Origin: Patescibacteria group bacterium
GTDB taxonomy: Bacteria; Patescibacteriota; JABMPQ01; JAHIRA01
Length of the DNA stretch: 64,000 nucleotides
Assembly: GCA_018818205.1 (NCBI GenBank)
Contig: JAHISJ010000006.1
Span: 41,817 to 105,816, forward strand
Reading direction: 5' to 3'
Numbering within the stretch: position 1 is the first letter of the stretch; every line of letters begins with the position of its first letter. The notes below the pieces were generated by a model that was not told the origin of the DNA, made no database searches, and saw only the letters and a program-made list of their open reading frames with translations. Position numbers and translations under genes: made by a program. Shown here piece by piece: positions 8,166 through 63,000 of this stretch.

Positions 8166-11003
8166 ATGAAGAAACATCGAGTTAAAGCGCTTGTCGCGCT
8201 TGTTCTTGCAGGGGTTATGTCCTTTGCAACCTATTACTATGTGGTTCCAAATCAACCACAGGATTTAGATTTGAGTGCAAAAGAGGCTGAGGCACTCACG
8301 CAAAATTGGGATCAAGTGTCCCCAGTGGGAATTAATGCAAATGCAGCAAATATTGGTAAAGCCACAGATACTTTAACGGCTTCCGGAAGCTATCTTTATG
8401 CTACTGCAAGAAGGACCGATCCGATATTGCCATCACTTTGGCGATACGAATATGTTAATAGTCAAAATTCATGGACACAGATTACTGAGGATGCCTGTGG
8501 TGCTTCTGCTGAAGCAGAATATTTTACTGCATCGGTTGATTTTGAAGGTGATTACGTTGCAGCAGTTTTTGATGAAACAAATGGTGCTTCCGTTGTTAAA
8601 ATAAACAATGGGCAAGTAGGCTGTACTGCAGCAAATAAGTTGGGTACAACGGGGCTTGGGTATGGAAGTGACCTTTCAAACATTACTGACTTGTTTGTGC
8701 TCGAAGGTACTCTGTATGCCTTTGGTACTTTTGATACAGGTCATTCAGGAGCAGTCTTGCTTCAATATAACGAAGGATCAGGTACATGGTCGCATGTTGC
8801 ATCTCGTGAGGATGGACAGTTTGGCGCGACAACTACTGATTCTCAGCGGTGTGATGTTTCTGAAAGTCGAGCATACTGTACTTTTATGGGTAGCTCAGGT
8901 ATCCAGTTTTATACTGCAAGTGTAGGGAATATGCAAACTTGGGAGCAGCTAGGTCCACAAGGAAATAAAGATGGGTTTGGTGATCCGGGTAATGTACTTG
9001 CATGGGGGGTTGCTTTCACCTACGGGAAAGTATACGTTGGAACATCCCATCCTACAGGTGGGCAGCTTTGGCAGTATGTTGAAGGAAGTGCACATGACTC
9101 AATGAAGCAGATAAATCAGAATGGCTTTGGATCAGCAAATAACCAACATGTATGGGATATTGCAGAGCTGAATGGATACGTGTGGGCGACGGTATTTGAT
9201 ACCAATAGGAAGGCAAGCGTGTATCGTCTACAAGATCCGGATGCGAAAACTTGGGAATTGGCAAATATGCAAGGAGGGAGTTTTAAAGCAACAAATGAAC
9301 CTGTAATTGCGCTTACAAATTACAACAACAATATGTATGCGCTTGGGTATGACTATGATGGAGCTACAGACAGTTATATACAGGCGTATCGTTTTAAAGA
9401 CTATACCAAGCCTGAAGTATCAAACCGTGATCCCATGCCTTTATCTGGAGCAATCGTTGCACGTCCGGAAATGAAGTTTACCACAACTGATGATGAAACG
9501 GGAAACGATGTTGGAACTATTGCGGTAACTGTTACTGGTCAAACGAGTGGACAGCATGCTAATTTAACGATTGGCAAAACGCTTGCATCTGCTACTGAGA
9601 CAAACGCGCGAGTGTACAACTGGACTGTTCAATCGGACAAGGATTTTGCTTCAAGTGAGTTTGTCACTATTGATGTAACGATTTGTGACCGGTTTGTGTT
9701 GCAAAATTGTACAACCGATTCATGGGACTTTAGAGCACTTGCTATAGTTCCTGGTGGTCCAGGTGGTATTCTCAGGTTCAAAGCCCCAAGTGGTGTATGG
9801 CAAAATGACGACAAAACATATCAAGCTAAGGGAATGGTGCAGGTTGGTGTATTAGATGTGAGTGGCATCAAACAGGTCAGGTACACAGTTGATGGCTCAA
9901 ATCCAAATCAAAATTCAAAAGAACTTAAGAAGTGTGAGACGCTGTCATTTGTTAAGGATACTGTACTTAAGTATATTACGATTGATGACAGCGGAAACGT
10001 ATCTGAAGTATACTCGGTAAATATTCTTCTTCCAACGTCTACGGCAAATAAAACTCCCTTCATAGCAACAGCCCCCGGTAAAACAGGTGGTCCTGATGTC
10101 AAAGTATTTGACAAGAATGGAAATATGCAAGCTGAGTGGAATGCATTTGCCAAGGACTTACGCTGTGGTGCACGAGTAACTACCGGTGACATAAACGGTG
10201 ACGGTACTGATGAAGTCATTGTTGGATCCGGTGAAGGATGTACATCTCACGTGAGAGTATTCTCACCAAACGGTGTCGCAAAGCCTATTGATTACTTTCC
10301 GTTTGGCACTGACTCACGTACCGGTGCGGATGTTGCCGCAGGTGATGTTGACGGTGATGGTAAAGATGAAATTGCTATGATGCAATTTAGAAACGGTGAG
10401 ACTTGGGTAAAGGTGTATCGTTACAACAATCCTAGAGACATTGTTGGTGAGTGGCGAGCATACGAGGCTGGACAAGAATTTGGTGGAACTGTAGCTATGG
10501 GTGACTTTGACTACGATGGTAAAGCAGAGGTAGTAACCGGTGCCGGACCATCAGGCGATCCTCATATACGAATGTTTGAAGCAGACGGAGCGTTTAAAGG
10601 TGATCTCTACGCATTCCCACATTATGGTCTTGGATGGGAGCGTGAGGATGTCAGACGCGGCATAGACGTTTCAGCAGGCGACACTGATTTTGATGGTAAA
10701 GATGAAATTATGGCAACCGTTGCTGAAGGCGCACAAGCATACATGAAGGTCTACAGATGGAACAAGAGACGAAACATCATCATGGAAAACAAAGCATATG
10801 ACGCGCATGTTGGTACCAATGGATCACTCGGCGACGTTGACCAAGATGGATTTGCTGAGGCAGTCTCAGGTCCCGGATTTGGCGGCGGCCCTCAGGTGAG
10901 AGCGTTTGAAATGAACAAAGAACCTATAGAAAACACCGACTTCTTTGCCTACCTGAAATCATTCAGAGGTGGTACGGACATAGAGGTTGGGTATAGAAAG
11001 TAA
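8166..11003 (+). CDS. large secreted protein with C-terminal FG-GAP/VCBS-type beta-propeller repeats
   Basis: 945 aa; N-terminal signal peptide (KALVALVLAGVMSFA); >=5 repeats of GD(I/V/F/T)(N/D)GDG(T/K)DE(V/I) with intervening FG-like segments typical of FG-GAP repeats. Confidence 0.7.
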   Translation: MKKHRVKALVALVLAGVMSFATYYYVVPNQPQDLDLSAKEAEALTQNWDQVSPVGINANAANIGKATDTLTASGSYLYATARRTDPILPSLWRYEYVNSQNSWTQITEDACGASAEAEYFTASVDFEGDYVAAVFDETNGASVVKINNGQVGCTAANKLGTTGLGYGSDLSNITDLFVLEGTLYAFGTFDTGHSGAVLLQYNEGSGTWSHVASREDGQFGATTTDSQRCDVSESRAYCTFMGSSGIQFYTASVGNMQTWEQLGPQGNKDGFGDPGNVLAWGVAFTYGKVYVGTSHPTGGQLWQYVEGSAHDSMKQINQNGFGSANNQHVWDIAELNGYVWATVFDTNRKASVYRLQDPDAKTWELANMQGGSFKATNEPVIALTNYNNNMYALGYDYDGATDSYIQAYRFKDYTKPEVSNRDPMPLSGAIVARPEMKFTTTDDETGNDVGTIAVTVTGQTSGQHANLTIGKTLASATETNARVYNWTVQSDKDFASSEFVTIDVTICDRFVLQNCTTDSWDFRALAIVPGGPGGILRFKAPSGVWQNDDKTYQAKGMVQVGVLDVSGIKQVRYTVDGSNPNQNSKELKKCETLSFVKDTVLKYITIDDSGNVSEVYSVNILLPTSTANKTPFIATAPGKTGGPDVKVFDKNGNMQAEWNAFAKDLRCGARVTTGDINGDGTDEVIVGSGEGCTSHVRVFSPNGVAKPIDYFPFGTDSRTGADVAAGDVDGDGKDEIAMMQFRNGETWVKVYRYNNPRDIVGEWRAYEAGQEFGGTVAMGDFDYDGKAEVVTGAGPSGDPHIRMFEADGAFKGDLYAFPHYGLGWEREDVRRGIDVSAGDTDFDGKDEIMATVAEGAQAYMKVYRWNKRRNIIMENKAYDAHVGTNGSLGDVDQDGFAEAVSGPGFGGGPQVRAFEMNKEPIENTDFFAYLKSFRGGTDIEVGYRK

Positions 11004-11009
11004 ACAGTA

Positions 11010-11092
11010 GGGGCGCCCCTTGTGGGCGCCCATCTAATAATTGTATCGCATTCAATACGGGCGCCCACAAGGGGCGCCCGTACGTTTTTTTT
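11010..11092 (+). terminator. GC-rich 21-22 bp palindromic hairpin + T8 run (terminator / REP-like element)
   Basis: arms GGGGCGCCCCTTGTGGGCGCCC (11010-11031) and GGGCGCCCACAAGGGGCGCCC (11059-11079), 27-nt loop, followed by TTTTTTTT; between convergent genes. Confidence 0.55.
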
Positions 11093-14735: not shown

Positions 14736-14760
14736 AAAAACGCCCTTGCGGGCGTTTTTT
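14736..14760 (+). terminator. intrinsic terminator (AACGCCC-ttgc-GGGCGTT + T6)
   Basis: perfect GC hairpin and T-run 22 nt after stop of 13362..14714. Confidence 0.7.
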
Positions 14761-14763
14761 CGT

Positions 14764-14846
14764 TTGTTATCGTAGGGGCGCGTCTATTGTACGGACGTGC
14801 CTATGTATCGTACGGGTGCGCCGCGGCGCACCCGTACGATAACAAT
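14764..14846. repeat. GC-rich nested palindromic element (36-nt perfect palindrome inside 11-bp outer inverted repeat)
   Basis: TATCGTACGGGTGCGCCGCGGCGCACCCGTACGATA (14806-14841) is a perfect palindrome; outer arms TTGTTATCGTA (14764-14774)/TACGATAACAA (14835-14845); no T-run on either strand; shares CGTACGGG(C/T)GC core with element at 11059-11084. Confidence 0.5.
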
Positions 14847-14847
14847 G

Positions 14848-16059
14848 TTATGAAATAACGTTCAATTCTTTACCGACCTTCTCAAATGCGGCAATACCGG
14901 TGTCTAAGTCTTCTTTGGTATGCGATGCGGAAGGCATGACTCGGATTCGTGCGGTTCCTTTTGGTACCATAGGAAACTTAATGGCCGTTGCGTATATGTT
15001 GTTTTCAAAGAGTTTAGTGCTAAAATCCTTTGCGGTGTTTTCATCACCAATCATGACGGGGGTAATAGGGCTTTCGCTTTTACCGGTGTCAAACCCAAGG
15101 GCCTTAAGCTCTTTTTTGAGATACTCAGCATTTTCCCACAGTTTTTTCACTAGTTCGTCCGACTCTTCCAAAGTGTTTACTGATGCAATAAGTGCAGCTG
15201 CATCAGGAACTGAGAGGCCGTTTGAGAAAAGAAACTGTCGTCCTTTTTGGCGGTAATACTCAATTAACTCTTTTTTCCCGGTAATAAATCCACCCATAAC
15301 GCCAAATGCTTTTGACATAGTGCCAACTTCAATATCTACTTCACCATCGAGGTTAAAATGGTTAACAATACCGCGACCATGATCACCTAAAACTCCCTCG
15401 CCATGAGCGTCATCTACCATCGTAAATGCATCGTACTTTTTGGCGAGCTCGACTATGTGTGGCAGGGGAGCAAGGTCACCGTCCATAGAAAAAACTCCAT
15501 CAGTAATAATGAGGATTCTCTTTTGACCACCATCTGACCGTAATTCCTTTTGAGCTTCTTTTGCTTCTTCTAGCCTTTTAGAGAGATCATCCATATTTGC
15601 ATGAGCATAGATGAACTTTGTTTTAACTCCTGAAAGTCGTACACCATCAATGATTGATGCATGGTTGAGCTCGTCAGAAATAACAATATCTTCTTTACCA
15701 ATGATGGTTTGTATTGCACAAAGATTAGCCATGTAGCCGCCGGTAAGGGCAAGAGCTGCCTCAGCGTGTTTAAAGTGTGCAAGCTTCTCTTCCAGTTCAA
15801 TATGAAGAGCGTTTGTACCGGAGAGTGCTCGTACTGAACCGGTACCAACACCGTATTTTTCTACCGCTTCTAGCACTGCCTTTTTTAAATTGTCATGTGC
15901 AGCAAGCCCGAGGTAATTATTTGAACAGAGATTAAGCTTTTTCTCTCCATCAATAGTAAGCCATGCACCCTGGCTCGACTCGATAACTTTAATGGTGTTA
16001 AAGAGTCCGTCTTCTTTCATTTGCTCTATTTCTTGAGCAAACACGTGGTATTTATCCAT
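14848..16059 (-). CDS. kbl: 2-amino-3-ketobutyrate CoA ligase (glycine C-acetyltransferase), class-II aminotransferase
   Basis: [11 protein letters not shown]...[12 protein letters not shown]...TMSKAFG (PLP lysine) typical of Kbl/BioF family; adjacent to tdh; start set to ATG 16059 (MDKYHV...) because the upstream 49 codons of the ORF-track call run through a MITE-like repeat. Confidence 0.8.
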
Positions 16060-16094
16060 AATTTTTTGTGAGTTCTTAATACTATTTTTTATTC

Positions 16095-16201
16095 TGTCAT
16101 CCCGGACAGTCTTTCCTGAGACTGATTCGGGATCTCCTTGCTTACAGACTAAACCACACGATTCCGGATAGTCACTTAAGAAAGTGGATTCCGGGATGAC
16201 A
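16095..16201. mobile_element. MITE-like element copy 1 (107 bp, perfect 12-bp TIRs TGTCATCCCGGA/TCCGGGATGACA)
   Basis: terminal inverted repeats plus internal hairpin modules (CAGTCTTTCCTGAGACTG; CACTTAAGAAAGTG) and a central module TTCGGGATCTCCTTGCTTACAGACT shared with copy at 47225-47333; located in the tdh-kbl intergenic region. Confidence 0.6.
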
Positions 16202-16221
16202 ATCACTATTTGAGTGTGTTT

Positions 16222-20830: not shown

Positions 20831-22600
20831 TTAAAAGATAGTTCTCTTGGTAATATCGTCTTTAACAAGGGTGGCAAAATCATCAACTGAGTACTCTTTG
20901 ATCTCTTTTTCATCTCTTTTTCGTACGGCAATGTTGCCCGATTTTGCTTCTTTCTCACCTAACACAACAATGTAAGGCACTTTATCTTTAATCGCGTCAG
21001 CTATTTTTTTACCTACAGATTCTTCGCGCAGATCTTCTTCTATGCGAAGTCCGCGATCTTTGAGCGTTTGTACTAGAGTGTGTGTTTCTTTGAGCACTTT
21101 TTCTGATACAGAAAGTACTTTTACGTGATAGGGTGCAAGCCAGACAGGGAACTTCCCAGCGTATTCCTCTATGAGGATTGCCATGAGTCTCTCTGCCGAA
21201 CCAATAATGCCACGGTGAATCATTACTGGCCTTCTCTCTGTGCCATCCTTGTCTATATAGGTGAGATCAAATCGCTCTGGCATGTTTTTGTCTATCTGTA
21301 CGGTACAGATTTGCCATTCTCTCATGAGGCAGTCCTTGACGATAATATCCACTTTAGGACCGTAAAATGCCGCTTCGCCAATTTCTTCTTTAAAAGTGAT
21401 GTTAGTTTCTGTAAGGAGGTCTCTTAATAATGACTCAGATTCGTCCCATATTGTATCATCACCGATGTACTTTTCTTTTTTCTCTGGATCTCTAAGTGAT
21501 AGTCGTATTGAGTAGTCGGTAAGGCCATATGTTTTAAGCGCTTCTGTAATAACATCCATAACTTTGATAAACTCATCTTTGACCTGATCTTCAGAGCAAA
21601 AGCAGTGCCCATCATCGACTGCAAAATACTTAAGCCTGGTAAGCCCTGCAAGTTCTCCTGGTTTTTCATCGCGATAAACATTTGCGAAGTCTGAAAACCT
21701 AAGAGGCAGGTCCTTGTAACTTCTCTTTTTTGCAGCAAAAATTTGCGTATGCTGAGGACAATTCATTGGCTTAAGGTAGTACTTTTCTTCTGTGTAATGA
21801 GAATGTACCTCGAGCATGTCATCTTTATACTTCTCGTAATGCCCTGAGACTTTAAATAATTCTGCTTTATTTATATTGGGTGTGTGAACCTCCTCATAGC
21901 CAATCTTCGTGTTGAGTTCCCGAGAGTAGTTTATAATTTCGTTTCTAACAATGAATCCTTTTGGTGTATAGAGGGGGAGACCCGGACCAATAAGATCAGA
22001 AAAGGTGAATAGATCAAGCTCTTTACCAAGCTTTCTATGATCTCTCTTTGCAGCTTCCTTTTTTAGAGCTACAAAGGTGCGTAGTTCTTTTGGGGTATCA
22101 AATGCGAGTCCATAAATTCTTTGGAGCATGGGGTTTTTCTCATCTCCACGCCAATACGCGCCAGAAGTTTTCTCTAGTGAAAATGATTTTTGGTTTAGCT
22201 CACCAGAAGATTCTACATGAGGGCCTGAACATAAATCAACAAATGAACCGGTACGGTAAATAATGACTTCATCTTCACCTTCTTTTTTAAGTTCATTGAT
22301 GAGTTCGATTTTATAGGGCTGATTTGCTTTTTCAAACGCACTAAGTGCATCAGGTATTGATATCACTTCCTTTTCAAAGGGGAGGTTTTGACTGATAAGT
22401 GATTTCATTTTCTCTTCAAGGAGTGGGAGATCCTCTGGGATAAGTGTTCTAGGCAGCTCAAAATCATAGTAAAACCCAGTATCTATTGCTGGGCCAATGC
22501 CAAGCTTTGCTTCAGGAAACATCTCTAAAACGGCGGCTGCGAGGATATGGGAGAGCGAATGTCGCTTAATCTCTAGTGTAGGTTGATTATTTTTGCTCAT
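20831..22600 (-). CDS. thrS: threonine--tRNA ligase (short form lacking N-terminal TGS domain)
   Basis: 589 aa; HSLSHILAAAV (editing-domain HxxxH), class-II aaRS motifs, C-terminal anticodon-binding domain. Confidence 0.9.
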   Translation of the reverse strand: MSKNNQPTLEIKRHSLSHILAAAVLEMFPEAKLGIGPAIDTGFYYDFELPRTLIPEDLPLLEEKMKSLISQNLPFEKEVISIPDALSAFEKANQPYKIELINELKKEGEDEVIIYRTGSFVDLCSGPHVESSGELNQKSFSLEKTSGAYWRGDEKNPMLQRIYGLAFDTPKELRTFVALKKEAAKRDHRKLGKELDLFTFSDLIGPGLPLYTPKGFIVRNEIINYSRELNTKIGYEEVHTPNINKAELFKVSGHYEKYKDDMLEVHSHYTEEKYYLKPMNCPQHTQIFAAKKRSYKDLPLRFSDFANVYRDEKPGELAGLTRLKYFAVDDGHCFCSEDQVKDEFIKVMDVITEALKTYGLTDYSIRLSLRDPEKKEKYIGDDTIWDESESLLRDLLTETNITFKEEIGEAAFYGPKVDIIVKDCLMREWQICTVQIDKNMPERFDLTYIDKDGTERRPVMIHRGIIGSAERLMAILIEEYAGKFPVWLAPYHVKVLSVSEKVLKETHTLVQTLKDRGLRIEEDLREESVGKKIADAIKDKVPYIVVLGEKEAKSGNIAVRKRDEKEIKEYSVDDFATLVKDDITKRTIF

Positions 22601-22633: not shown

Positions 22634-22793
22634 TCTTCAAAATCTCTCCTCCCTCTTTTTTTAGTTTTAAGGCCTCGGTTTCTTTTTAGCTTTGACGGTG
22701 TAATAGCAGAATATGAACATGGAGTGGACTTTTTAGTGTATGGAGGGAGGCACAGAGAAAAACTAAAAAAAGAGGGAGGAGAGATTTTGAAGA
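22634..22793. repeat. 160-bp element with perfect 35-bp terminal inverted repeats (MITE-like or long RNA stem) in thrS upstream region
   Basis: TCTTCAAAATCTCTCCTCCCTCTTTTTTTAGTTTT (22634-22668) is the exact reverse complement of 22759-22793; 90-nt spacer. Confidence 0.6.
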
Positions 22794-47224: not shown

Positions 47225-47333
47225 CTGTCATCCCGGAATTTCACTTCTGAGTGAAACATCCGGGATCTCGTGGCTTACAGACTGTAAGCGATAAGACTCC
47301 GGTTCAGTCTTAGGAAAGACTGTCCGGAATGAC
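47225..47333. mobile_element. MITE-like element copy 2 (109 bp; TIRs TGTCATCCCGGA / TCCGGAATGACA)
   Basis: same TIRs and central module CCGGGATCTCGTGGCTTACAGACT as copy 1, hairpin modules (CACTTCTGAGTG; CAGTCTTAGGAAAGACTG) in swapped positions; sits between ATPase B and D genes. Confidence 0.6.
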
Positions 47334-56403: not shown

Positions 56404-58059
56404 TTACTTATTCTTAAGACATTTTATCATGTACGTTTCACGGAGGCGATATCCAATTTTTCGATAATAATTTCTGGCTCCAATCCCAGAAATAACCGTT
56501 ATTCTTGAGAGATTACATTCTTTATTTGTTATTTTTTCAGCTTCTGTGATGAGTAGTTTACCGTAGCCTACGTGTTGAGAAGCTCGTTTCTTTCTATCCG
56601 AGAATTCAAGCGTTTCTCCATAAGTATGCACTTCTCTAATAATCGATGCGTTTTTAAGTACTGGGATAAATACATCAAGGGAGGGGATCCTAAGCCTAAG
56701 GAGTGCAATAAGTTTATCTTTCTTAGTATCTTCAAAACTTAAAAATATTTCGGTACCGCCTGATGCGTTATAGTCTCTGCGGACCATTTTTATATTTTCT
56801 TTGATGATTTTTTCGTCACGTATTTCTCTACATCTAATGCACTGACATTTTGCATGCTCTGTTTCCATTTTTTGGTGTACGATTTGCCTGATATTTGACA
56901 GTTTATTTCCTCCAATAATGTCTGGAGCAGGTATGTCTCTTCCAAGTCGCATGATACGTACGTAAGGTGGGATTACTTTCTTAATATTCATAATAAGCTC
57001 AACGAGTTGAGCATTGGTGTACGGTGTGAACTTTTTCTCTCTATAGAGCTTTTCTAAGTCTGAATCGCGTGTTACAACACATGGATATATTTTGATAAGA
57101 TCAGGCTTAAAGTTGGGATTATTAAAAAGTGTTTCAAACATTTCAAGATCTCGTTTTATTGTTGATCCGTACAAATTTGGCATGAGGTGGTAGTTGATCT
57201 TAAGCCCTGCATCTTTGAGGAGCTTGGTTGCACGAATAGTCTCTTTAACACTATGGCCGCGCCTGTTTTTTTTAAGCACATCATCATAAATTGACTGAAC
57301 ACCAATTTCTACACGCGTTGCACCGAGCTCCCTAAACCATAGAATTTCCTTTTTGGTGATGTAATCGGGACGTGTTTCTAATGTTAGACCGATGATGCGA
57401 TTTTTGGCGGATTCGTTGCGTTTTTGGGCAGTCTGTAGAGACGCAAAATGTAGAGGCGCAAGATTTTGCGCCTCTACATTTTGCGCCTCTACAGACCCAT
57501 TCGCCGCGTCAAAACATCGTTTAATAAACCACGTTTGATACTTTTTTGGCAGGGTTGAGAACGTACCTCCCATGACAATAAGCTCAATTTTATTGGTGAG
57601 ATGACCGGTGATATTAAGTGCGTTGATTCTGGCTTGAACTTGTCTAAAGGGGTCAAATTCGGTGAGCACTGCGCGCATAACTGCAGGCTCATCAGAAAAA
57701 TAGCTTTTGGGCATACCTTTTTCTGTTGGACAGTAAAGGCAGTTTCCAGGGCATGGCCATGGTTTTGTCAGTACGGCAATTGAGGCAATGCCAGAGAGTG
57801 TACGTGTTTTTTGTTTTTGAAGAACCTTAAAGAGTTTTTTATCTGGTGCTATTTCTTTTTTTTCGAGCAATTCTCTGTACGCTGCAAGCAGTTCAATATT
57901 AGAAAAGCAGGGCATACTGTGTTTTTCAGCATATTCCCTTTTGCGTTTTTCAAAAAGCTTTGTCGTGGTATGATTACCCGTGGACACGTCTCTAATAAAA
58001 TGTTTGGCATGTTTTGACATGGCTGTATTTAACCATTTGTGATCAATTTTTACAAGCAT
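56404..58059 (-). CDS. Elp3-like radical-SAM/GNAT tRNA-modifying enzyme
   Basis: 551 aa; radical-SAM CxxxxCxxC (CPGNCLYCPTEKG), HAT/GNAT C-terminal domain (QHVGYGKLLITEAEKI). Confidence 0.8.
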   Translation of the reverse strand: MLVKIDHKWLNTAMSKHAKHFIRDVSTGNHTTTKLFEKRKREYAEKHSMPCFSNIELLAAYRELLEKKEIAPDKKLFKVLQKQKTRTLSGIASIAVLTKPWPCPGNCLYCPTEKGMPKSYFSDEPAVMRAVLTEFDPFRQVQARINALNITGHLTNKIELIVMGGTFSTLPKKYQTWFIKRCFDAANGSVEAQNVEAQNLAPLHFASLQTAQKRNESAKNRIIGLTLETRPDYITKKEILWFRELGATRVEIGVQSIYDDVLKKNRRGHSVKETIRATKLLKDAGLKINYHLMPNLYGSTIKRDLEMFETLFNNPNFKPDLIKIYPCVVTRDSDLEKLYREKKFTPYTNAQLVELIMNIKKVIPPYVRIMRLGRDIPAPDIIGGNKLSNIRQIVHQKMETEHAKCQCIRCREIRDEKIIKENIKMVRRDYNASGGTEIFLSFEDTKKDKLIALLRLRIPSLDVFIPVLKNASIIREVHTYGETLEFSDRKKRASQHVGYGKLLITEAEKITNKECNLSRITVISGIGARNYYRKIGYRLRETYMIKCLKNK

Positions 58060-62619: not shown

Positions 62620-62982
62620 GCTGGTTTTGGGGAAGAGGAAAAACATTCTAAAATCTTGCGTAGACCCCGGAGTGTAACTGAGTGGTACGTGAAAACAAGA
62701 GAATGGGCCCCCGCAAATTTCTGAATTTGTGGGGAAGAGGAGGAACACTATGGAAGTCGGAGTGGATCCCGTAGGCTTTGCGAAGGGATACACGCAGACT
62801 GGAATGATGGGCCCCCGAAAAGTTCCTACTTTTTGGGGAAGGGGAGAAACATCCTGGAAGCAGGAGTGTTGTATAAGAAAATGGAGGGGCCCCCGAGAAA
62901 TTCTGATTTCTTGGGGAAGAGGAGGAACACTATGTAAGTCGGAGCGGATCCCGAAGGCTTTGCGTAGGGATACGCGCAGACT
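62618..62982. repeat. degenerate tandem repeat array (~90-bp units alternating two subtypes; ~183-bp super-period) between tRNA-Thr and tRNA-Ser
   Basis: units beginning GGGCCCCCG...TTGGGGAAG(A/G)GGA(G/A)(G/A)AACA at 62705, 62809, 62888 plus diverged copy at ~62625; A-type units 62705-62800 and 62888-62982 ~88% identical. Confidence 0.6.
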
Positions 62983-63000
62983 TACATAGTGTTCCGACGA

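Follow-up and report, generated by a model that had tools for sequence, protein, structure and literature searches.

Repetitive extragenic palindromic (REP) elements carrying a GTAG tag are hairpin units copied by REP-associated tyrosine transposases (RAYTs, or TnpA-REP), which are transposases of the HUH/Y1 type. RAYTs bind the folded single-stranded REP via its tag, stem, and loop, cleave at a CT close by, and are able to join strands; the mobile unit is believed to be the REP doublet (PMC3733652, PMC8266576, PMC3116915). In vitro, the substitution of GTAC for the GTAG tag abolished cleavage by TnpA-Sm (PMC8266576). REPs found between convergent genes stand within a few nucleotides of both stop codons, and in-frame inserts of REPs and of Rickettsia palindromic elements (RPEs) are known, tRNA-modification genes included (PMC3733652). 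For the REPs of E. coli, roles in termination and mRNA stabilization have been described (PMC3733652, PMC8266576). The DNA considered here is a stretch of 64,000 nucleotides, hereafter the window, taken from contig JAHISJ010000006.1 of a Patescibacteria bacterium (assembly GCA_018818205.1), that is, from a member of the candidate phyla radiation (CPR). It includes three palindromic loci, numbered 1 to 3, which are probably GTAG-tagged REP elements of the kind copied by RAYTs. CPR genomes are small. As RAYT genes tend to go with larger genomes (PMC6006769), REP footprints in such a genome are mildly surprising.

Loci 1 and 2 had been described in a first-pass annotation as GC-rich palindromes located at convergent gene ends and resembling REPs or bacterial interspersed mosaic elements (BIMEs). 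Both are present as described, and both stand in convergent spacers, 2-3 nt from stop codons. The REP-like reading itself is supported by the cross-genome identity of the locus 1 unit, by the linkage of this unit to RAYT genes elsewhere, and by position. The core CGTACGGGYGC, proposed as common to the two loci, has three exact matches and one related match with a single mismatch, versus 0.34 expected. An even stronger common word, GTAGGGGCGC, is present in two exact copies (11007 and 14772) versus 0.03 expected, a number reached in 0 of 100 shuffles. Searching the shared head with one mismatch brought up locus 3, which had escaped the earlier description. Since this third locus is intragenic, the elements are more than a pair of copies at plain transcript 3' ends, the situation in which they were to be regarded as idiosyncratic terminators. 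The tag GTAG is found at 11007, at 14772, and in all four units of locus 3, and the tag GTAC at the right unit of locus 1 and at both ends of the locus 2 palindrome. The short palindrome expected of REP units (20-40 nt, with a stem of 6-13 bp and a short loop) is found at each of the three loci: perfect 8-bp stems with 5-nt loops at locus 1, stems of 10 bp and of 8-10 bp at locus 2, and palindromes made of 15-nt half-units at locus 3. The arrangement expected of such elements, namely an extragenic position at 3' ends of convergent or co-directional genes and inverted dimers with members 20-100 nt apart, is found as well at loci 1 and 2, with a spacer of 27 nt at locus 1 and a distance of 2 nt from the stop codon at locus 2. 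The RNA folds calculated for the hairpins range from -59 to -64 kcal/mol, with z-scores from -6.8 to -9.7. The background against which they stand out has a G+C content of 40-41%, and not of about 38% as first estimated.

The Locus 1 Unit in Other Genomes

Locus 1 is best described as a head-outward dimer, similar to REPINs (REP doublets forming hairpins), of a 25-nt unit that is found unchanged in many phyla (Table 1). The sequence GGGGCGCCCCTTGTGGGCGCCC at 11010-11031 is followed by its inverted copy at 11059-11080, and the arms can be extended to 30 nt on each side of the spacer (11002-11031 / 11059-11088) with 90% complementarity. The stem sequence GGGCGCCC occurs four times, always within locus 1, versus 0.16 occurrences expected. 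Locus 1 occupies the entire 87-nt intergenic spacer between a gene coding for an FG-GAP protein and miaA, and its left unit begins 3 nt past the FG-GAP stop codon.

The 25-mer was scanned for in GTDB, with one genome per species, and was found without any change in at least 120 stretches (8 kb each, about 900 kb in all) that belong to at least eight phyla and are all higher in G+C than the window. The matches listed come from Chloroflexota, Acidobacteriota, Latescibacterota, Alpha-, Gamma-, and Deltaproteobacteria, Planctomycetota, Omnitrophota, Gemmatimonadota, Bacteroidota, and Bacillota. The 25-mer is multi-copy in these genomes, some of which contribute several stretches each, and it is also present in viral contigs. 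The template GTAG-GGGC-NNN-CCTTGTG-N'N'N'-GCCC has 243 matches in the approximately 900 kb listed. The variable triplets are complementary in 208 of the 243 and of nine kinds; such compensatory stem variation is the pattern that would be expected of a selected hairpin. The matches listed also include 43 head-outward dimers, with a spacing of 1-79 nt and a median of 28 nt, compared to 27 nt at locus 1.

The link with RAYTs comes from the same stretches. Open reading frames (ORFs) with the motifs HUH...Y..NP are present in six of the 120 stretches listed (L071, L094, L108, L126, L157, and L178), with REP units flanking or inside them, whereas for a single-copy gene of a genome of about 4 Mb a rough estimate gives an expected number of about 0.2-0.3 such ORFs in the 120 stretches. 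Three of the four ORFs tested are matched by the Pfam family Y1_Tnp, two of them above the cut-off, and the ORF of L071 passes the NCBIfam model REP_Tyr_transpos (NF047646, REP-associated tyrosine transposase) with 81.7 bits for a curated cut-off of 80 bits. This RAYT gene has three units on its upstream side and four on its downstream side, the arrangement of a textbook REPtron. The RAYT genes of L094, L108, L157, and L178 themselves contain a head-outward REP dimer, in frame and between the motifs HUH and catalytic Tyr, so that the transposase gene carries its own substrate.

These inner dimers are found at 2046-2367 in L094, 6052-6161 in L108, 1644-1726 (reverse strand) in L157, and 5310-5416 in L178. 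The genes concerned belong to four unrelated genomes, those of two Dehalococcoidia, one other member of the Chloroflexota, and one member of the Cellvibrionales, and the dimer is read as VGAPLVGA...ATTRVAPT.

The tag varies little in the family, as GTAG heads 237 of the 243 template matches and GTAC the six others. Copies of the locus 1 unit headed by GTAC account for two of 88 in the GTDB stretches and also occur in L020 and L022. Clusters of GTAC-tagged hairpins were observed in L013 (1786-1900), L015, and L145, for instance as CGTAC-GGGCGCAC-GGC-GTGCGCC repeated every 30 nt. As these clusters look native, GTAC families may exist in their own right, and not only as mutated forms of GTAG families.

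Taken together, the identity over 25 of 25 nt, the compensatory stems, the dimers, and the RAYT linkage elsewhere show that locus 1 genuinely belongs to a REP family associated with RAYTs.

Structure of Loci 2 and 3

Locus 2 may be interpreted, with lower confidence than locus 1, as a diverged cluster of REP-type hairpins headed by GTAG or GTAC. Its 36-nt palindrome is perfect, as previously stated, and because this unit, with a stem of 8-10 bp, is symmetric, a GTAC tag is present on each strand. The palindrome had also been said to be nested in an 11-bp outer inverted repeat. The first 11 nt of this repeat are indeed perfect, but it extends over 19 nt (14764-14782 / 14827-14845, 89%), and its right arm overlaps the palindrome instead of enclosing it. 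The absence of a T-run on both strands and the presence of a canonical terminator upstream were confirmed. Locus 2 starts 4 nt past this terminator and ends 2 nt short of the stop codon of an aminotransferase gene lying on the - strand, which places it in the 3' untranslated region (UTR) of that gene, upstream of the shared terminator. When locus 2 was itself tested as a terminator, a U-run was found on neither strand. Hairpins of the GTAGGGGCGCG type are present in other contigs (L010 and L047).

Locus 3 would correspond to a nested double dimer inserted in a tolerant loop of an Elp3-like protein. It sits in an intact ORF of 551 codons encoding an Elp3-type radical-SAM tRNA-modification enzyme, and it is read in frame as VEAQNVEAQNLAPLHFASLQ, i.e., about 20 residues. 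On the mRNA strand, the single mismatch of the hairpin becomes a G-U pair, and the hairpin is thus fully paired (-59.9 kcal/mol). Alignment with 13 homologues locates the insert in a length-variable loop following the conserved CFDAAN. This loop is about 14 residues longer than in the short-loop homologues, which are the majority of the 13 aligned, and about 9 residues longer than in the nearest relative (68% identical). The latter has no locus 3 insert, and no such units were found in its 15.5 kb. Locus 3 thus combines the two features of an in-frame palindromic insert, an ORF left intact and an insert absent from orthologues.

The same loop (alignment columns 190-235) harbors a different insertion of 25-45 residues, mutually homologous, in the CPR Elp3 homologues P0003, P0005, P0011, P0018, and P0021, and appears from the alignment to be an insertion hotspot.

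The locus 3 palindrome type, GTAGAGACGCAAnnTTTTGCGTCTCTAC, is present in 41 viral-contig stretches with G+C contents of 36-63% and at most three copies per stretch. In the viral contigs L030-L070, the palindrome GTAGAGACGCAA[G/T/A][A/G]TTTTGCGTCTCTAC is conserved base for base, and it is included in long ORFs in L031, L044, and L057. One of them, L047, also carries a hairpin of the GTAGGGGCGCG type, a co-occurrence similar to that of the window. A search with the pattern GTAGGGGCGC-N30-60-GCRCCCGTAC matched high-G+C viral contigs only and was too loose to inform.

Table 1. Coordinates of the palindromic loci, their parts, and the adjoining genes in the window.
Feature	Position	Strand	Description
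FG-GAP protein gene	8166-11003	+	Upstream neighbor of locus 1
Locus 1, whole	11007-11083		Head-outward dimer of the 25-nt unit GTAG-GGGCGCCC-CTTGT-GGGCGCCC
Locus 1, left REP-type unit	11007-11031	+	Tag GTAG 11007-11010; 8-bp stem GGGCGCCC 11011-11018 / 11024-11031; loop CTTGT
Locus 1, spacer	11032-11058		AT-rich, 27 nt; loop of the long hairpin
Locus 1, right REP-type unit	11059-11083	-	Inverted; sole difference from the left unit is the tag, GTAC for GTAG
T8 run	11085-11092	+	Adjoins the right unit and runs into the miaA stop codon
miaA	11091-11978	-	Stop codon 11091-11093; convergent partner at locus 1
Ordinary bidirectional intrinsic terminator	14736-14760	+	AAAAACGCCC TTGC GGGCGTTTTT; directly upstream of locus 2, context only
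Locus 2, full extent	14764-14845		Outer inverted repeat TTGTTATCGTA / TACGATAACAA at its ends
Locus 2, unit 1	14772-14802	+	GTAG tag; 10-bp stem GGGCGCGTCT / GGACGTGCCT with one G-T pair; 7-nt loop ATTGTAC
Locus 2, perfect palindrome	14806-14841		36 nt; GTAC-GGGTGCGC-CGCG-GCGCACCC-GTAC, flanks TATC/GATA
Aminotransferase gene	14848-16206	-	Its stop codon adjoins locus 2
Elp3-like radical-SAM gene	56404-58059	-	Holds locus 3
Locus 3	57431-57496	-	Four 15-nt units GTAGAG(G/A)CGCAAAA(T), two direct and two inverted; 31-bp hairpin

Distribution in This Genome and in Relatives

Several observations weigh against the assignment of the three loci to REP elements copied by a RAYT. The sequence of the organism examined amounts to about 82 kb, composed of the window and of three further pieces of 8.4 kb (L006), 9.3 kb (L274), and 0.5 kb (L008). 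Only the three loci were found in it, and none in the added 8.4 kb and 9.3 kb. No full unit is common to two loci, and a resident, proliferating multi-copy population is therefore only plausible. Membership of a multi-copy family is observed for the locus 1 unit and for the locus 3 palindrome type, not for the locus 2 stems. The 36-nt palindrome of locus 2 has no exact relatives in the viral contigs or in the retrieved loci; as its stems are without exact counterpart elsewhere, the membership of locus 2 rests on the shared head of 10-11 nt and on architecture. No RAYT-like ORF was detected in the approximately 82 kb, on the basis of a scan of the window for HUH...Y..NP motifs in six frames and of Pfam lists. 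The spacer of locus 1 is AT-rich, unlike that of donor-type dimers. Finally, Patescibacteria are not represented among the at least 120 GTDB stretches listed, which means little.

The comparison with other sequences points the other way as regards the origin of the elements. In about 810 kb of other MiaA-bearing metagenome contigs, which come from a protein-guided MiaA scan of metagenomes and represent relatives at most 47% identical and not the organism itself, one marginal GTAG/GTAC-headed GC-rich hairpin was found, versus three loci in the 64-kb window. In the syntenic relatives L271 and L272, whose MiaA proteins show 60-61% identity, the spacer between the FG-GAP gene and miaA holds terminator hairpins of the ordinary sort, flanked by AT and unrelated in sequence. 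As relatives have unrelated terminators at the site of locus 1 and no insert in Elp3, insertion is suggested instead of local evolution, keeping in mind that the syntenic relatives lacking the elements are distant (60-68% protein identity).

Probable Terminator Role and Proposed Mechanism

The first-pass annotation considered locus 2 unlikely to be a simple terminator, which is right. Locus 1 does resemble a terminator of the + strand because T8 comes after its hairpin. Indeed, the features of an intrinsic terminator are found on this strand, with an 11-bp stem containing nine G-C pairs and followed by CGTTTTTTTT. The hairpin also has an A-rich leader. On the - strand, the tail CTACTGTTTA is weak. 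The hairpin, with 21-30 bp and -59 kcal/mol, is much longer than the 10 bp of the organism's normal terminators, and no second terminator is present within the 87-nt spacer. Locus 1 is thus most likely, judging from these features, a REP dimer and a working terminator at once.

A mechanism can be proposed in which a REP-RAYT system enters the Patescibacteria lineage horizontally, or a RAYT acts in trans, transposition then placing the units. At locus 1, the hairpin and T8 would have taken over as the intrinsic terminator that separates the FG-GAP gene from miaA, probably acting in both directions, and would end transcripts of the FG-GAP gene and probably also of the miaB-like/miaA operon. Within the aminotransferase 3' UTR, locus 2 could be a neutral passenger, or it could stabilize the mRNA 3' end by blocking 3' exonucleases, while locus 3 would be tolerated because of its placement in a variable surface loop. 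As the GTAC tag is cleavage-dead in TnpA-Sm, half of the units present here may be immobile; those headed by GTAC have probably lost the ability to be cleaved, provided that their cognate RAYT acts like the TnpA-Sm tested. The preservation of an unchanged G+C-rich unit in a genome with 40% G+C suggests either strong constraint or recent arrival.

A more ambitious version of this scenario supposes that the CPR genome was colonized by at least two or three cross-phylum REP families, with units matching those of Chloroflexota and Acidobacteriota base for base, owing to a recent inter-phylum transfer of REP-RAYT systems or to a RAYT provided in trans by the host or by a co-resident element. It is unlikely as a whole. 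If it were true, with a transfer between phyla into ultra-small, presumably episymbiotic Patescibacteria, the REP sequence type could be used to trace the donor or host lineage, and the RAYT genes including their own in-frame dimer, known from four genomes, could represent a self-contained transfer vehicle.

Alternative Explanations

A serious alternative, although it appears less probable than the assignment given above, is that the loci are genuinely REP-derived but are dead relics, delivered once by a transient RAYT or by the uptake of foreign DNA and then kept as co-opted terminator or UTR hairpins. Their low density, the lack of a unit common to two loci, and the lack of a RAYT in about 82 kb are in agreement with this possibility, and so is the small size of CPR genomes, RAYT genes going with larger ones. 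Half of the tags are moreover GTAC, with which cleavage was lost in the one system tested (PMC8266576). Locus 1 nevertheless has perfect stems that equal the family consensus and have not decayed against a background of 40% G+C, and three REP types in 64 kb are not expected from a single accidental event. The significance of the tag is also weakened by the native-looking GTAC clusters of L013, L015, and L145, and GTAC thus need not mark a dead copy. The assignment to GTAG-tagged REP elements copied by a RAYT remains preferred.

It is very improbable that the palindromes are idiosyncratic intrinsic terminators or 3'-end stabilizers that evolved in place and resemble REPs by coincidence. Such an origin would account for the hairpin and T8 of locus 1, at a place where relatives have terminators, and for the location of both loci 1 and 2 at convergent 3' ends. 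An identity of 25 of 25 nt with a repeat known from at least 120 stretches and many phyla is, however, not due to chance. In addition, the hairpins of the relatives are unrelated and AT-richer, locus 2 comes directly after a complete terminator without having a T-run of its own, and locus 3, whose head is closely related (one mismatch), is placed within a coding region.

The proposal that the loci are organism-specific sites, either bound by a host protein or serving as DNA-uptake or recombination signals (such as uptake sequences in inverted pairs at the ends of genes), is slightly less credible still. GC-rich palindromes with a common head motif at the gene ends of an AT-rich genome could suggest it, but the same sequences are located beside RAYT genes in unrelated phyla, two or three sites in about 82 kb are far too few for an uptake signal, and the three loci differ in sequence beyond the head. 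Two other identities were ruled out, namely an attC/integron site, since the core sites do not fit, and a CRISPR repeat, since there is no array.

The least probable explanation of all, an assembly artefact or a chimeric join with co-assembled high-G+C organisms, could invoke the Logan contig SRR6514274_11957, which stops within the locus 2 palindrome, and units typical of high-G+C bacteria possibly present in the same sample, but loci 1 and 3 are identical in two assemblies, ENA (MEGAHIT; ERZ27247128) and Logan, the two genes flanking locus 1 also lie next to each other in relatives, which counts against a chimeric join, the Elp3 frame is intact across locus 3, and composition is equal on both sides of locus 2. 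The break in the Logan contig (L002) occurs at about 14835 and is consistent with a coverage or graph problem induced by a repeat or a hairpin.

Host and Other Repeats of the Window

The window belongs to a metagenome contig of 125 kb (ENA ERZ27247128). The product of miaA is identical to NCBI MBU1118415.1, and the homologues of Elp3 and MiaA are labelled Patescibacteria or Parcubacteria. With Rfam at gathering thresholds, two tRNAs were found in the window and nothing else; at the loci, the hairpin matches were far below threshold (MicX, 26 bits versus 75).

Another family of small repeats, which has no relation to the GTAG units, resembles miniature inverted-repeat transposable elements. Its element of about 108 nt has two intergenic copies (16094-16201 and 47225-47315) that are about 75% identical and alignable in both orientations, with termini forming the inverted repeat TGTCATCCCGGA...TCCGGGATGACA. 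Besides, a perfect 35-nt inverted repeat, AAAACTAAAAAAAGAGGGAGGAGAGATTTTGAAGA, is found at 22634-22668 / 22759-22793, with arms 90 nt apart and a Shine-Dalgarno-like GGAGG inside; its left arm stands 34 nt upstream of the start of the gene 20831-22600 (- strand). The blocks AGGAGGAACACTATGGAAG and CGAAGGCTTTGCG are common to the region 62738-62995, beside tRNA-Ser, and to L006 (16833-16899), about 5.5 kb further along the contig. The tRNA-Ser-side region also includes a 29-nt inverted repeat (62924-62995).

Comparison with Known Systems

Bidirectional intrinsic terminators share with locus 1 a G+C-rich hairpin, a T8 tail on one strand, and the place that a terminator occupies in syntenic relatives. 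Unlike them, locus 1 has a stem that is a mobile-repeat unit found across phyla and a hairpin that is far longer, and locus 2 is devoid of any T-run.

RPEs and intragenic REPs are comparable to locus 3, which is in frame in a conserved enzyme gene, in a tolerant loop, and adds about 20 residues. The likeness to RPEs concerns behavior; the sequence family is a different one, of GTAG type with 15-nt half-units.

The REPs and BIMEs of E. coli likewise are palindromes that lie outside genes at 3' ends, carry a GTAG tag, and have a RAYT (TnpA-REP) as partner. Their stems are bulged and imperfect, and BIMEs are mosaics with sites for IHF or gyrase, whereas no mosaic motifs and, beyond the tag, no sequence similarity were seen here.

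The closest systems are the GTAG-REPs with their REPINs and REPtrons (PMC3733652, PMC3116915), especially those of group 3 such as REP-Sm of Stenotrophomonas (PMC8266576). The resemblance includes a perfect G+C-rich stem of 8 bp, a short loop, and an unpaired GTAG just before the stem, as well as head-outward dimers with a spacer of tens of nucleotides and a location at most 20 nt from convergent ORF ends. It extends to intragenic in-frame dimers coding for about 20 residues and to the linkage of the identical unit with RAYTs in other genomes. The differences concern the host, a CPR bacterium with about 40% G+C, the tags, half of which are GTAC, a form not found among the degenerate tags of PMC3733652, and the dimer of locus 1, both units of which have the same stem, whereas dimers elsewhere usually combine two stem variants. 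The repeat sequences of the window were not found in the text of the supplements to PMC3733652, a paper with 24 GTAG families, and a literature search for the exact sequences returned unrelated primer matches or none. Similarly, the literature searched did not link REPs or REPINs to CPR or Patescibacteria beyond incidental co-mention.

REP/RAYT systems have been described mainly from larger proteobacterial genomes, and the presence of intact consensus units in a CPR bacterium would extend their host range to reduced genomes. The case brings together a mobile hairpin that probably serves as a terminator and a repeat that decorates Elp3, a conserved enzyme of tRNA modification, and it offers a lead for tracing the flow of DNA between CPR bacteria and their neighbors. 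Its practical value is modest. The elements account for a break in an assembly, and masking or annotating them is preferable to reading them as regulatory sites. Based on sequence comparison, locus 1 is a member of the known GTAG-REP/REPIN class, and what is new is the phylum of its host, the CPR.

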